DNA from: Candidatus Kerfeldbacteria bacterium
GTDB taxonomy: Bacteria; Patescibacteriota; Patescibacteriia; SBBC01
Assembly: GCA_043799405.1 (NCBI GenBank)
Contig: JAZDNT010000003.1
Coordinates: 79,461-143,460 of the forward strand
Reading direction: 5' to 3'
DNA: 64,000 nt
Made by a program: the position numbers and the translations under genes. Of the stretch, positions 44,191-47,895 are shown one piece after another (position 1 is the first letter of the stretch; the number at the start of each line of letters is the position of its first letter). The notes beneath the pieces are model-generated. The model was given only the letters and a program-made list of their open reading frames with translations. It did no database searches and was not told the origin of the DNA.

Positions 44191-44307
44191 TTACTTACCG
44201 CTTGCGAATAAATATATCAACACCAATATCGCCACAACAACATATATATAAAATAATTGGACAATTAGACCCTCATGCTTTGAGCGTGGTCCTTTAATTC
44301 CCTTCAT
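44191..44307 (-). CDS. possible 38-aa membrane peptide
   Basis: MKGIKGPRSKHEGLIVQLFYIYVVVAILVLIYLFASGK. The ATG lies 4 nt after the stop of the gyrB remnant. Below the ORF-track size cutoff. Confidence 0.3.
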   Translation of the reverse strand: MKGIKGPRSKHEGLIVQLFYIYVVVAILVLIYLFASGK

Positions 44308-44310
44308 TTC

Positions 44311-44449
44311 TTAAATATCCAAATTCTGCCCACTCTTCGCGTGTGTCGTGATGAAACGCTTGCACGGCGTGACCTCGGCACCCATAAGGATGCCGAAAAT
44401 CTCGTCAGCCTTGTCTGCGTCCTCGATCGTGACCTGCTTCATGATGCGG
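44311..44449 (-). pseudogene. displaced copy of the gyrB 3' end (45 codons plus stop)
   Basis: Reads [45 protein letters not shown]-stop, against true Gyr[46 protein letters not shown]-stop (45835-45973). About 117 of 139 nt are identical by hand alignment. Confidence 0.85.
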
Positions 44450-44467
44450 GACGCCGGCGCCAAGTAT

Positions 44468-45103
44468 CTACTTCGTAAATTTCAGGCTCTTGATGATCGA
44501 ATCAACCTGGGCCGAGTACGTGGCATATGCGGACTGGGGAGCCATGAACGTTACGCTGTAGTAATTTAATTTGCGGACGTAGGAAAAGACGCCAAAGGTA
44601 TAGGTGCTACCCTCCATGGTGCAGGTCACGACCGCCCGACCGCCGATATAACCACCGATGGTTTTTTTAAAAGCCCGGTCAAGAACACAGGTAGCAGTGG
44701 GAAACTGTGTCTGTAAACTGGTCAGGAGTAGCTGGCCATAATCCTTGGGGTGCTTCAGTAAGGTATGACTAGCGGTGTCGGCCTGTTTTTGGGTCTTGTA
44801 CTTTGTCACGGCAAACAGCCATTCAACGCTTGTGTTGTCGGCTGGCTGGGCCGCAAAAAGTATACCTGCTGGAGGAGTTAACTTTACCCACCCCGTTGGC
44901 AAGGTCAGCGTAAACCCGTTCTTTTTACTGGTGTACGATTTACCCTGAATGCTGACGGTCCCGGCCTGAGAGTGGAGCTGGCTGATAATCGGCTGTAGCG
45001 TCTTTACCAGCTGATCGGTAGGACTAGAAGACGCTGAAGCGATCTGTCCGGGCAACAGAAGTGCCGCGGCGATTATCGCACTGAGCACTGCGTATTTTGG
45101 CAT
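44468..45103 (-). CDS. secreted hypothetical protein (DcrB/PsbP-like pattern, tentative)
   Basis: 211 aa from ATG 45103; the ORF opens at TTG 45136. Signal peptide MPKYAVLSAIIAAALLLPGQIASA. FTLTLPTGWVKL. Confidence 0.6.
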   Translation of the reverse strand: MPKYAVLSAIIAAALLLPGQIASASSSPTDQLVKTLQPIISQLHSQAGTVSIQGKSYTSKKNGFTLTLPTGWVKLTPPAGILFAAQPADNTSVEWLFAVTKYKTQKQADTASHTLLKHPKDYGQLLLTSLQTQFPTATCVLDRAFKKTIGGYIGGRAVVTCTMEGSTYTFGVFSYVRKLNYYSVTFMAPQSAYATYSAQVDSIIKSLKFTK

Positions 45104-45167
45104 ATTGTTCTGGTTAAATAATGAGCTTGTGGACAAACTGACAATCTAATCGTACCACTACAAGCAA

Positions 45168-45224
45168 TTAAATAATATCCTCCTTTTCGAGTTCTTTTAA
45201 ACGTTTATCGAGATCGGGGTTCAT
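45168..45224 (-). pseudogene. 18-codon fragment paralogous to the N-terminus of 43408-43608
   Basis: Reads MNPDLDKRLKELEKEDII-stop, against MDPDLDKRLAELEKKVDEM... Confidence 0.55.
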
Positions 45225-45225
45225 T

Positions 45226-45702
45226 TTATTTAAATATTTGGAAAACTATTACACCAAGTGCAATTGAACTCAGAAAAAATGAAATGCCTTGAATTATAAA
45301 AAACAAAGTTGATGATTTTCTTGGAACCTTATCTTCACCCTGATGTTTGTCAACTATTTTCTTAAGTGAACCTAAATCTTGTATAGATTCATCGTTATAA
45401 AACTCATCCATTGTATCAATTTTTGCGTTTGCCCAAGTATTAATAAAATTATACTCAATGAATAATTGAATAATTCCACATAATATTGAAATACCAAATC
45501 CTATCCAATCATAAATCAATGAATGTTTAAGTGAAACGCTTGGATTTTTTTGAAGCAAAAAAGCTGATGCAGTAAGAAACACAGTAGAAACTACAATCAC
45601 TTGGGTTATTACTTCCCTAAATGTCGAATTCGCCGCTTCAGTGAAGCGATATATTTCCTTTCTAAGTAAATCGATGTTATTGTTTCGAAAGTCTCCAGTC
45701 AT
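45226..45702 (-). CDS. membrane protein (AT-rich)
   Basis: 158 aa with about 3-4 TM helices. Very low GC. Confidence 0.55.
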   Translation of the reverse strand: MTGDFRNNNIDLLRKEIYRFTEAANSTFREVITQVIVVSTVFLTASAFLLQKNPSVSLKHSLIYDWIGFGISILCGIIQLFIEYNFINTWANAKIDTMDEFYNDESIQDLGSLKKIVDKHQGEDKVPRKSSTLFFIIQGISFFLSSIALGVIVFQIFK

Positions 45703-45833
45703 TTTTTATTCTTATCCTCTTCCTGATTAGGCTCTTTTGTTGGATATGTTGGAACAGCAACTCCCTTTTCAATTTTAACACTCGGATCATTTTGCTTTTG
45801 ATCCGGTTCATTTTCCTTATCTTGATCGTACAT
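45699..45833 (-). CDS. small acidic/lysine-rich peptide
   Basis: 44 aa from ATG 45833, which lies 1 nt after the gyrB stop. ATGA overlap with the next gene. Low complexity. Confidence 0.35.
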   Translation of the reverse strand: MYDQDKENEPDQKQNDPSVKIEKGVAVPTYPTKEPNQEEDKNKK

Positions 45834-45834
45834 A

Positions 45835-47895
45835 TTAAATATCCAAATTCTGTACTGACTTCGCGTGCGTCGTGATGAAGCGCTTGCGAGGTGCGACTTC
45901 TGCGCCCATGAGGATATCGAATATCTCGTCGGCCTTTTCCGCGTCCTCAATCGTGACCTGCTTCATGATGCGGCTCTTCGGATCCATAGTGGTTTCAGCA
46001 AGCTGCTCCGCGTTCATCTCGCCCAAGCCCTTGTAGCGCTGTACTGAAACGCCAGTTCCTATCGAGACCGTTTCGCCTTCGGGCGTCTCCCCTTCCTGCT
46101 CGAGTCCGATGACCGCTCCTTCGAGCGTCAGCGTTACGTCCTTTTTCACCGGTTTTCCCTTTATCGGTTTCTTTGCCTTTTCCTCTGCGCCTTTTGACGC
46201 CAGCTGCTTCATGAACTTGTCGCGCTCGTCGTCGGAAAACGCGTAGTGGTGCTCTTTACCTTTCCCAACACGGTAGAGAGGCGGCTGGGCAATGTAGATG
46301 TGTCCTTTCGAAATGAGGTCAGGGAAGTACCGGTAGAACAGCGTCAGAAGGAGCGTCCTGATGTGCGCGCCGTCGACGTCTGCATCGGTCATGATAATGA
46401 TGCGGTTGTAGCGGAGCCCCGAAATGTCGAACTGCTCGCCGATGTTCGTGCCGAGCGCTATGATCAAAGACTTCACCTCGTTGTTCGCGAGCATTTTATC
46501 GAGCCGCGCGCGCTCAACGTTCAGGATCTTGCCCCTAAGCGGCAGAACTGCCTGAAATTCGCGGTCTCTCCCCTGTTTTGCGCTTCCTCCGGCAGAATCC
46601 CCCTCAACGATGAAGATCTCGCTCTTGCTCGCGTCCCGTGAACTGCAGTCCGCGAGCTTTCCCGGGAGCGTCATGCCCTCCAAAGCGCCCTTCCGCAAGA
46701 CGGTTTCGCGTGCAGCGCGGGCTGCGACGCGTGCGCGCTGCGCAAGTATAACCTTGCCGACCATTGCTTCGGCATCGCGCGGGTGCTCTTCAAGGAACTC
46801 CGACAGGGTTTCCGTAACGACGCTGTCGACGGCGGACTTCACCTCGGCATTGCCGAGCTTCGACTTTGTCTGCCCTTCGAACTGCGGTACTGGAACCTTG
46901 ACGGAAATGATGGCGGTCAGCCCTTCGCGAATGTCATCTCCTGTCAGGTTCTCGTCCTTTTCTTTAAGGTACCCCTGCTTCCGGGCATAGTTATTGATGC
47001 TTCTAGTCAGCGCCGTCCGGAAGCCTATGAGGTGCATGCCGCCCTCGGTTGTAAAGATGTTGTTCGCGAAAGAGAAGACGGTCTCTTTGTAGTCCTCTGT
47101 GTACTGCAACGCAGCCTCGACACGGACCTTATCGACCTCCTTGTCGACGTAGAAGACGCCGACGTGCTTGACGTCCTTGTTGTGGTTCAGGTGCTTAACG
47201 TAGCTTTCGATCCCGCCCTCGAAGTAGAAGGTGTACTGCTTGTAGGGCCGTAGGCGGGAATCGATGACGTGGATCGTTACACCCTTCGTGAGGTACGCCT
47301 GCTGCCGAAGGTGATCGAGAACGGTCTGTAAGTTAAAATCAAGAACGGTGAAAACCTGGGGATCAGGCTCGAACATGATCGTCGTTCCGGTCCCGCGGGC
47401 TGCGCCAACTGCCGATACCTTTCCGGTCGGTTTACCGCGCTTATACTCCTGCACCCAGAGCTTTCCGTCGCGCCTCACTTCGGCGCGCATCCAGCTCGAC
47501 AGCGCGTTCACGACGGAAACGCCAACGCCATGCAAACCACCTGAAACCTTGTAACCTCCCTCACCGAACTTTCCGCCGGCGTGCAGCATGGTAAGGACAG
47601 TTTCGAGCGCGGATTTCTTCGTCTGTGGGTGCTTGTCAACAGGAATGCCCCTGCCGTTGTCGGAAACGGACACCCTGCTCCCCGGTTCGAGGCGCACCTC
47701 GATCCGATCGCACCGGCCTGCCATTGCCTCGTCGATCGAGTTATCGACGACCTCCCAGACAAGGTGGTGGAGACCTTCCGAGGCAGTGTTCCCGATGTAC
47801 ATGCCGGGACGCTTCCGCACCGGCTCGAGACCTTCGAGCACAGTGATCTGCTTCGCGGTGTACTCCTGTTTTTTCTGTTCTTTTTTCTTCGGCAT
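45835..47895 (-). CDS. gyrB: DNA gyrase subunit B
   Basis: 686 aa. [49 protein letters not shown]. Confidence 0.97.

Follow-up and report, generated by a model that had tools for sequence, protein, structure and literature searches.

Patescibacteria are almost entirely uncultivated, and the ways in which they acquire genes are little understood. This article concerns the 3′ end of the DNA gyrase gene gyrB in a 64,000-nucleotide (nt) stretch of a Candidatus Kerfeldbacteria genome (GenBank assembly GCA_043799405.1, contig JAZDNT010000003.1, positions 79,461 to 143,460 of the forward strand), hereafter called the window and numbered from its first letter. An intact gyrB is followed there by a 1.4-kb insert of small genes and, past the insert, by a second, displaced gyrB end, an arrangement that is examined here together with the corresponding loci of related genomes (designated by L and a number). 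The features of the locus, in the reading direction of gyrB and with lengths of proteins in amino acids (aa), are as follows:

45835..47895, minus strand: gyrB, an intact open reading frame (ORF) of 686 aa with the Pfam domains HATPase_c, DNA_gyraseB, Toprim, and DNA_gyraseB_C
45835..45987, minus strand: working gyrB 3′ end (last 50 codons and stop), the upstream copy of the repeat; linker allele MDPKSR
45699..45833, minus strand: putative 44-aa hydrophilic ORF, starting 1 nt past the gyrB stop and joined to the next gene by an ATGA overlap
45226..45702, minus strand: AT-rich gene for a 158-aa membrane protein with three hydrophobic segments; GC content 0.30
45168..45224, minus strand: 18-codon 5′ fragment (MNPDLDKRLKELEKEDII and stop) of a gene of the type of p66, a 66-aa membrane protein encoded farther downstream
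44468..45103, minus strand: gene for a 211-aa secreted protein with a PsbP/DcrB/LpqN-like fold and a signal-peptide-like N-terminus
44311..44463, minus strand: displaced relic, most likely of an earlier gyrB 3′ end, with 50 codons and TAA, its frame open and now outside any gene

The window GyrB shares 81-86% aa identity with the GyrB of Ca. Kerfeldbacteria relatives. A preliminary description of this DNA had reported a direct repeat of the gyrB 3′ end with about 117 of 139 nt identical, and both the coordinates and the identity agree with what was found: positions 44311-44449 and 45835-45973 align without gaps at 117/139 nt, both copies are closed by TAA, and both encode the GyrB C-terminus. 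The five residue changes attributed to the relic (E>D, D>G, A>T, R>C, and V>G) are all correct, and the genes listed between the repeats are present, as are the small ORFs that begin 1 nt past the working stop (TAA T ATG) and 3 nt past the relic stop (TAA GAA ATG). An abrupt end of similarity after catgatgcgg, on the other hand, was not borne out, since the relic continues for another 14 nt as a different allele of the linker, reading L-A-P-A-S-R where the working gene has M-D-P-K-S-R; within this stretch it has TGGCGCCGG in common with L002 and CCGGCGTC in common with L161, both in register. With the relic thus lengthened, the junction between cassette and relic is placed near 44463/44464, with 4 nt separating it from the TAG of the 211-aa gene, and what lies upstream of the relic bears no relation to gyrB. 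Over its full 153 nt the relic is identical to the working end at 124 positions (P about 1e-38 by chance), and the two ends are repeated with a period of 1524 nt. The longest identical run is a 24-nt block (CCGCATCATGAAGCAGGTCACGAT) near the upstream edge of the repeat, which is ordinary conservation and not a recombination core, being identical in L002 also. When 197 long ORFs of the window were scanned for a downstream copy of their own last 42 nt, gyrB scored 36/42, rplK 31/42, and the next best ORF 27; only the 3′-end copies of gyrB and rplK score far above the remaining ORFs.

To judge from their sequences, the two gyrB ends are different alleles, the old end having been replaced and displaced and not copied, so that the earlier wording, in which that end was said to be duplicated, has to be given up. 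The 153-nt copies differ at 29 sites, of which 6, 6, and 17 fall at codon positions 1, 2, and 3, respectively (16 of 22 at third positions in the 139-nt core). Neutral decay following a duplication in place would be expected to put more than half of the differences at first and second positions, and it is rejected by this distribution (P = 0.006). Differences are also clustered in the variable 14-nt linker, where 7 of 14 sites differ, compared with 22 of 139 in the remainder (Fisher P = 0.006); it is in this part of GyrB that species vary and true orthologues differ. The gyrB of L161, which belongs to another species, matches the relic at 126/153 nt, compared with 124/153 for the working copy of the relic’s own genome. 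At the 29 differing sites L161 agrees with the relic at 16 and with the working copy at 9; a serine codon, for example, is AGT/AGC in the relic and L161 and TCA in the working copy. These matches spread over the whole length, hence neither copy is a hybrid. The relic additionally carries five changes at sites where all seven of the closest relatives agree with the working copy, such as R>C in PRKRF, which implies that it has been free of selection for some time. The event had been described as either recent or involving a copy from a diverged relative: the five changes show that it is not recent, and the allele data favor the diverged relative.

Which of the two ends is native can be approached through the genes that lie beyond the relic:

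44191..44307, minus strand: 38-aa single-helix ORF, starting 3 nt past the relic stop; GC content at third codon positions (GC3) 0.36
43630..43920, minus strand: 96-aa GIY-YIG protein, catalytic domain only (Pfam GIY-YIG, E 4e-16); native gyrB-downstream context
43408..43608, minus strand: p66, the 66-aa membrane protein; native neighbor with homologues in L002 (66%) and L164 (83%)

In L002 a GIY-YIG gene and the 66-aa gene follow directly after gyrB, and in L163 a GIY-YIG gene also follows it. The window GIY-YIG protein is 83% identical to that of L002 and 85% identical to that of L163, a divergence similar to that of GyrB itself. Directly after gyrB in L161 comes a HAD gene. Upstream, the order UvrD-NUDIX-DsbA-pheS-pheT-gyrB is kept in every relative examined, and the slot downstream of gyrB has seven different contents in seven relatives. 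The claim that a gene block sits between the intact gyrB and a displaced 3′ end is accordingly upheld, L161 (with HAD), L002 (with GIY-YIG and the 66-aa gene), and L163 (with GIY-YIG) providing relatives without the block. Because the GIY-YIG and p66 genes that stand beside the relic follow gyrB in relatives, it is most likely the relic that represents the end of the original gene, and the working end would have come with the insert. Sequence affinity leaves the native end unsettled, whether assessed by a sliding-window comparison of gyrB or by the flanking genes pheT and HAD. The 38-aa ORF lies within a 241-nt AT-rich stretch that is missing from L002. The 150 nt upstream of the GIY-YIG gene (window 43921-44069; L002 3920-4068) are conserved and contain inverted repeats. 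Farther along, the HAD and M32 carboxypeptidase genes of the window stand in the opposite order to those of L001, L163, and L164, and in L164 (5346-9102) a p66 homologue stands between two M32 genes; the region past the gyrB slot has thus been rearranged between relatives as well.

The insert is foreign, being missing from all relatives and atypical in composition: GC3 is 0.63-0.86 in core genes, as against 0.24 for the 44-aa ORF, 0.21 for the 158-aa gene, 0.61 for the 211-aa gene, and 0.71 for the working gyrB end. In the public record (NCBI V1907_02710 and V1907_02715, contig of 495 kb) the 211-aa and 158-aa genes have consecutive locus tags, so that the 44-aa ORF is seemingly unannotated (the gyrB tag was not seen), and scans of Pfam, NCBIfam, PADLOC, and PHROG gave no family or homologue for it. 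The 158-aa protein found only itself among 5.8 billion proteins and had no match in viral contigs, phages, or plasmids; a weak match to Pfam 8xMP was below threshold, and an exact look-up of this protein and the window GyrB in a contig index returned no match. For the 211-aa protein, an AlphaFold model (mean pLDDT, a per-residue confidence measure, of 81.7, from 13 sequences) was compared with known structures by Foldseek, the best match being cyanobacterial PsbP (E 4e-10), followed by DcrB, LpqN, and MTC28; the predicted fold is one typical of secreted envelope proteins. The family is rare, with fifteen remote homologues. Eight of these were looked up and two had an organism name, both of them metagenome-assembled genomes (‘Patescibacteria group bacterium’ and ‘bacterium’); the nearest homologue has no gyrB beside it. 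A different small GIY-YIG gene lies just upstream of that homologue (L168 5465-5722). The insert proteins matched no defense, NCBIfam, or phage family and no toxin or immunity family, and no part of the insert matched viral, phage, or plasmid collections.

Between the 158-aa and 211-aa genes, the p66-type fragment agrees with the start of the 66-aa gene (43563-43608) at 35/46 nt and 12/15 aa, and its last 13 nt (GGATATTATTTAA, 45168-45180) may represent a mini-relic of the gyrB tail. Fragments of the p66 5′ end are found in the window cassette and, at junctions, in L001 and L163, where the same kind of fragment is fused straight to a gyrB tail relic. Since p66 is a neighbor of gyrB in relatives, its presence as a fragment within the insert points to a related chromosome as donor and away from a phage or plasmid. 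Composition and the internal gene fragment together indicate at least two layers, and the view of the insert as a single 1.4-kb three-gene cassette therefore has to be revised: it is probably a mosaic in which the AT-rich 44-aa and 158-aa genes with the p66 fragment form one layer and the 211-aa gene the other, the 211-aa gene probably having arrived first and the AT-rich pair later. As further observations on this fragment, imported blocks have it at their distal end in two or more independent events (L001 13227-13316, L163 about 10685-10771, and window 45168-45224), the joins fall in the first 60 nt of the p66 gene, and in L001 the fragment makes a 29-codon ORF fused to the gyrB tail (MNQDIDKKLEELTKKVDEMHAGSVQNLDI and stop). 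A possible origin of the p66 N-terminus from an old, diverged gyrB tail was ruled out (shuffle P 0.25-0.99). Chance was considered sufficient to account for an 11-nt match between 44153 and 45155 (CCACTACAAGC) and for an inverted repeat of 20 nt (44424/44615).

The same scar is carried repeatedly by related genomes, and the process at the gyrB locus in this clade is a recurrent one; the window is not a single odd event, as it had first appeared. A pattern for the last six codons and stop of gyrB was run on both strands of 169 sequences and gave 86 forward matches and 0 on the reverse strand, with more than one match at several loci. (A tblastn screen of 159 loci for second GyrB C-termini had found none, a false negative for short relics, which were found later by a degenerate 18-nt pattern and a search for the 7-residue tail.) Displaced tails, with different genes between the tails of each array, were found as follows:

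L163, 10062-11600: three displaced tails
L001, 12050-14145: two displaced tails
L164, 3468-4004: one or two displaced tails
L004, 3020-4241: one displaced tail, past the gene for a 327-aa coiled-coil protein
L006, 7733-7808: one displaced tail
L098: one displaced tail

The relics start 21, 33, or 153 nt before the end of the stop codon, depending on the genome. Working and displaced tails of relatives are separated by 4-7 synonymous changes per 21 nt, so these tails too are different alleles. L001 and L163 have a distal array in common, made up of a p66 fragment with a relic fused to it, a 120-aa gene, an 81-aa gene, and a decayed relic, and since the two arrays differ beside gyrB, turnover takes place on the gyrB side. 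What emerges is a series of orphaned 3′ ends lined up behind a single intact gene, represented in the window by one clear relic and the possible 13-nt one. The prominence of gyrB may be owed in part to its conserved tail, which makes relics easy to recognize. A nucleotide scan for displaced 3′ ends of all ORFs at all loci produced as many upstream as downstream hits (paralogues and repeats) and was uninformative on generality, and an all-against-all tblastx of the window was too noisy.

Some of the arrays show additional detail at their joins. The L098 relic (3176-3280) is a 33-nt gyrB tail (31/33) situated 38 nt past the stop, and at the beginning of the spacer the tail’s first 9 nt recur in inverted form (CTTAGCGTA), which suggests fold-back or template switching. 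In L163 (10083-10122) and L164 (3489-3558), the working stop is separated from the first relic by short GC-rich sequence bearing hairpins; the inserts of the two genomes have their ends (CCCTGAGCGA..GCGGCGAGTCG) in common, that of L164 has a perfect 10-bp stem, and either a terminator or a small repeat element is conceivable. Beyond these inserts, the relics may continue further upstream, with a 4-nt insertion.

Direct evidence that gyrB 3′ pieces and the cassettes next to them move between lineages by recombination, with breakpoints within gyrB, comes from a comparison of L001 and L163. Counting back from the gene end, their gyrB sequences are 85% identical at -900 to -386, 95% at -385 to -61 (third positions 88%), and 73% at -60 to -1, where third positions are identical at 5 of 20 codons and the amino acids are unchanged. 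The distal 933-nt cassette is 97.7% identical and was co-transferred, as against 67% for pheT and 81% for HAD, and the breakpoints are at about -385 and -60 inside gyrB. The shared tracts are:

L001 11685-12010 and L163 9697-10022: gyrB tract, 95%
L001 13266-14198 and L163 10721-11653: cassette, 97.7%

A parallel had been drawn with rplK, the other gene singled out by the scan of the window, and it is real. The locus (27641-32302) reads as follows:

31877-32302: rplK
29632..31842, minus strand: 736-aa repeat protein with tail-fiber-like repeats, between rplK and its relic; GC3 0.45
29484..29523, minus strand: rplK 3′-end relic of 40 nt (GTAWNMGITIEG and stop), 30/40 identical with the stop in register; chance about 7e-5
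28493-29479: DUF5671 gene
27641-28333: rplA

The rplK relic ends 4 nt before the DUF5671 gene, and the 736-aa protein matches PHROG tail-fiber families with E down to 4.5e-19. L165 offers the empty site: there the gene for the DUF5671 membrane protein begins 16 nt past rplK, rplA comes next, and the 736-aa gene is missing. ORF scans of the window found no recombinase at the rplK locus. A further partial copy of 10 nt (GAAGGTACTG) occurs just upstream of the rplK relic, which suggests a complex join. Within the 736-aa gene (window 30340-31635) there are internal repeats of ~230 nt (76%), four copies of a 47-nt unit, and a recurring GNVGIGT motif.

Machinery for site-specific movement was sought across the window. 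A Pfam scan of its 59 ORFs (64 kb) detected no integrase, transposase, or other recombinase family, and the insert proteins showed no integrase or excisionase in Pfam, NCBIfam, PADLOC, or PHROG. There is no IntI-type integrase in the window, and the repeats consist of coding sequence from the gyrB end. Around the region, scans with Rfam and for tRNA/tmRNA, promoters, and terminators returned nothing relevant; with no tRNA or tmRNA nearby, an attachment site of the tRNA type is ruled out. Elsewhere in the window, about 6-8 kb downstream of gyrB, are genes for a Mu Gam-like protein (38794-39327; a sub-threshold match) and a SOS-response-associated peptidase (SRAP; 37462-38109), the former being present in L163 too, and a 777-aa subtilase-family gene (61606-63939) contains two tandem 198-nt copies that are 87% identical (62157-62552).

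We regard it as probable, though well short of certain, that the locus records repeated gene import, in which recombination took hold in gyrB at one end of the incoming DNA and the far end was joined without homology. DNA from another patescibacterial lineage would enter the cell, presumably as linear fragments (for example by natural transformation), and pair with the recipient gyrB, which would be conserved enough to serve as an anchor. A crossover within or upstream of the last 150 nt of gyrB would allow the donor strand to bring in its own gyrB end together with the genes behind it. The far end of the fragment, having no homologous partner, would then be joined non-homologously inside the recipient gyrB, 50 codons before the stop. 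The outcome would be an intact gyrB with an end of the donor allele, the imported genes next to it, and the last 153 nt of the recipient gene pushed downstream, where they would stay beside the native neighbors and slowly decay. A relic would be left whenever the far join falls upstream of the recipient stop codon, and repetition would stack new genes beside gyrB and leave a row of old ends behind them; for the window, at least two rounds are probable. Events of this kind have been characterized as homology-facilitated illegitimate recombination, in which one end is homologous and the other join mostly shows micro-homology of 3-10 bp (PMC3240628). The same process has been proposed for orphaned 3′ regions at type VI secretion system (T6SS) and Rhs loci (PMC5361080) and as a source of dimorphic loci in natural genomes (PMC2884548), and natural competence has been described in Saccharibacteria (PMC10633639). 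In the window itself no competence genes stand out, though no search aimed at them was made.

Several points weigh against gene import anchored in gyrB and deserve to be set out together. A sliding-window comparison of the window gyrB with seven relatives shows no clear change of nearest relative, the nearest relatives being saturated at synonymous sites; no breakpoint is thus visible in the window’s own gyrB, and a homologous crossover there is proposed by analogy with L001 and L163. A donor did not come to light: the closest GyrB shares 86% identity, none of the relatives of the insert proteins lies beside a gyrB, and a metagenome scan with the C-terminal 300 aa of GyrB and generic patterns gave 68% as the best among the matches listed. 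The joins are tidy, with the first insert ORF 1 nt past the gyrB stop and the relic 4 nt past the stop of the 211-aa gene, which is unexpected of random joins, though these genomes are very compact. The AT-rich pair, with GC3 of 0.21 as against 0.71 for the gyrB end, is unlikely to have resided long-term in one donor, so that extra steps are needed. Independent relics, at least two in number (L004 and L006), start exactly 21 nt before the end of the stop codon, which hints at a preferred site, and the assignment of the native end draws on context and on allele affinities that are weak.

Some of these same observations would suit a gyrB end that acts as a dedicated site of gene capture, at which cassettes devoid of an integrase and provided with recoded gyrB tails are inserted in a site-directed manner to build up an integron-like array. 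The insertion might be the work of an enzyme encoded elsewhere, either a recombinase or a nuclease (the small GIY-YIG protein being one candidate), or of recombination limited to the conserved 21-nt tail. Such a site would be compatible with the 21-nt start common to the L004 and L006 relics, with joins that fall neatly at stop codons, with the recurrence of the p66 fragment at cassette ends, and with a window in which no recombinase was found; we nevertheless consider it unlikely.

Equally improbable is that an element bearing its own imitation of the gyrB 3′ end integrated site-specifically, in the manner of e14 and phage 21 at icd; the 1.4-kb insert would then be what is left of it, or else a non-autonomous cassette mobilized by a recombinase whose gene lies elsewhere. 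The anatomy is nearly that of e14 in Escherichia coli K-12, the longest identity (24 nt) lies near the upstream edge of the repeat, and the shared start of the L004 and L006 relics could be taken as a fixed site. That 24-nt block, however, is equally identical in L002, and the relic goes on for 14 nt upstream of it as genuine gyrB. A fixed attachment site is also at odds with relic lengths that vary by event (21, 33, and 153 nt), neither the insert nor the 59 window ORFs supply an integrase or excisionase, and the insert holds a fragment of a chromosomal neighbor gene. At rplK the relic is just 40 nt long, and there is no recombinase there either.

A single crossover of the Campbell type, with a small circle that carried the insert genes and a 153-nt gyrB 3′ fragment, would reproduce the geometry exactly, including the period of 1524 nt. 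Circular single crossovers are known to leave duplications of 109-950 bp and were commoner than one-sided illegitimate events in E. coli conjugation (PMC3240628). The pairing is where this proposal meets difficulty: the copies are 81% identical, their longest uninterrupted identity, 24 nt, does not exceed the minimum usually required for pairing by RecA, and the 40-nt rplK relic (75%) is too short. Neither copy is a hybrid, the affinity to L161 spanning the whole relic, and nothing in a 1.5-kb circle suggests how it would form or persist. We hold this explanation to be decidedly unlikely.

The GIY-YIG gene invites the further thought that a free-standing homing-type nuclease broke the gyrB tail, the break being repaired from a foreign allele and the relic left past the cut. 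A GIY-YIG gene does follow gyrB or a relic in the window, L002, and L163, one displaced tail of L163 lies just downstream of it, several relics share a start position, and the new tails are heavily recoded at synonymous sites. Yet tails beside a GIY-YIG gene are not recoded relative to those of genomes without one, and the 96-aa protein has a catalytic domain without a DNA-binding domain. At 83-85% identity between genomes it is as diverged as GyrB, which suggests vertical descent; the gene lies outside the window insert, beyond the relic, and within the inserted part in 1 of about eight events. On balance a role of this nuclease seems very doubtful.

An assembly artefact, with two strains or species joined or stacked in the contig, comes to mind for any metagenome-assembled genome, the more so with one assembly of the lineage on record. 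It is highly improbable here: the join at 44463/44464 is not at a shared k-mer, which makes a graph mis-join unlikely, three unnatural joins would be needed, the relic has decayed as real non-functional DNA does, and the same architecture is met in six independent assemblies from other projects and at rplK. Scarcely credible, finally, is a tandem duplication in place from gyrB codon 637 into p66, followed by divergence and gene replacement in one copy, since, in spite of the same order of features occurring twice (gyrB ends 1524 nt and p66 starts 1616 nt apart), the codon-position pattern and linker clustering reject neutral local decay, the relic resembles the allele of another species as closely as it does the working copy, the genes between the repeats are unrelated and strongly different in composition, and the 211-aa gene sits where, from coordinates and annotations, the rest of p66 and then the beginning of the M32 gene would be expected.

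If gene import anchored in gyrB is the correct account, the relics constitute a built-in record, in which each would stand for one import event, its position for the order of events, and its allele for the lineage of the donor. Together with the mosaic gyrB tracts of L001 and L163, they suggest that conserved housekeeping genes serve as landing pads for DNA of quite distant relatives, and that non-homologous joins, which are rare in the laboratory, contribute visibly to the accessory genome. The imported genes encode mostly envelope proteins in the window and a LexA-like protein, a coiled-coil protein, and short ORFs in relatives. The pattern can be searched for, as a copy of the last codons and stop of a gene downstream of it on the same strand, and is potentially a genome-wide measure of import. 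That gyrB, a common marker gene, is mosaic in this clade also matters for annotation and phylogeny.

Among known systems, the intronless homing of T4-like phages by GIY-YIG or HNH nucleases resembles the locus in that a small nuclease gene lies between conserved genes and the flank is co-converted from a foreign allele; in the window, by contrast, the nuclease gene is outside the insert, has no DNA-binding domain, and is unsupported as a mobile gene. Integrons likewise consist of ordered, small, mostly promoterless genes with the newest at a fixed entry and a repeat between cassettes. No IntI is present in the window, however, and the repeat is the coding end of gyrB in varying length instead of an attC hairpin. 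Closer in mechanism is homology-facilitated illegitimate recombination as observed in experiments with Streptococcus pneumoniae, Acinetobacter baylyi, Pseudomonas stutzeri, and E. coli, in which one homologous and one non-homologous join bring in ~1 kb (PMC3240628). In those experiments recipient DNA of similar size is mostly deleted, whereas at gyrB the far join lies upstream of the donor end point and leaves a repeat. At Rhs, contact-dependent inhibition (CDI), and T6SS loci, new modules beside a conserved 5′ part push the old 3′ end downstream and create ordered arrays of orphans (PMC5361080), and such arrays are seen in L163 (three relics) and L001 (two). What varies there are toxin domains, with immunity genes, under selection; here the gene is the essential gyrB, the tail keeps the same amino acids as its DNA allele changes, and the inserts encode unrelated small envelope proteins or proteins of no assigned function, without toxin-immunity pairs.

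The closest architectural match is e14 at icd. The e14 element is a 15-kb prophage with an integrase, an excisionase, and a fixed site, as opposed to a 1.4-kb insert for which no fixed site and, in 59 window ORFs, no integrase, transposase, or other recombinase came to light, and which is marked by a chromosomal gene fragment, copies that are 81% identical, and relic lengths that vary between relatives. In both cases, nevertheless, the frame of a housekeeping gene is kept by an incoming replacement 3′ end, and the original end has been moved beyond the insert. When the two were compared directly, the repeat formed by icd and the pseudogene icdC was found to be 165 nt long and identical at 153/165 nt, with 11 of its 12 differences at third codon positions, and, like the gyrB repeat, it ends with the stop and loses similarity abruptly upstream (PMC13626634).

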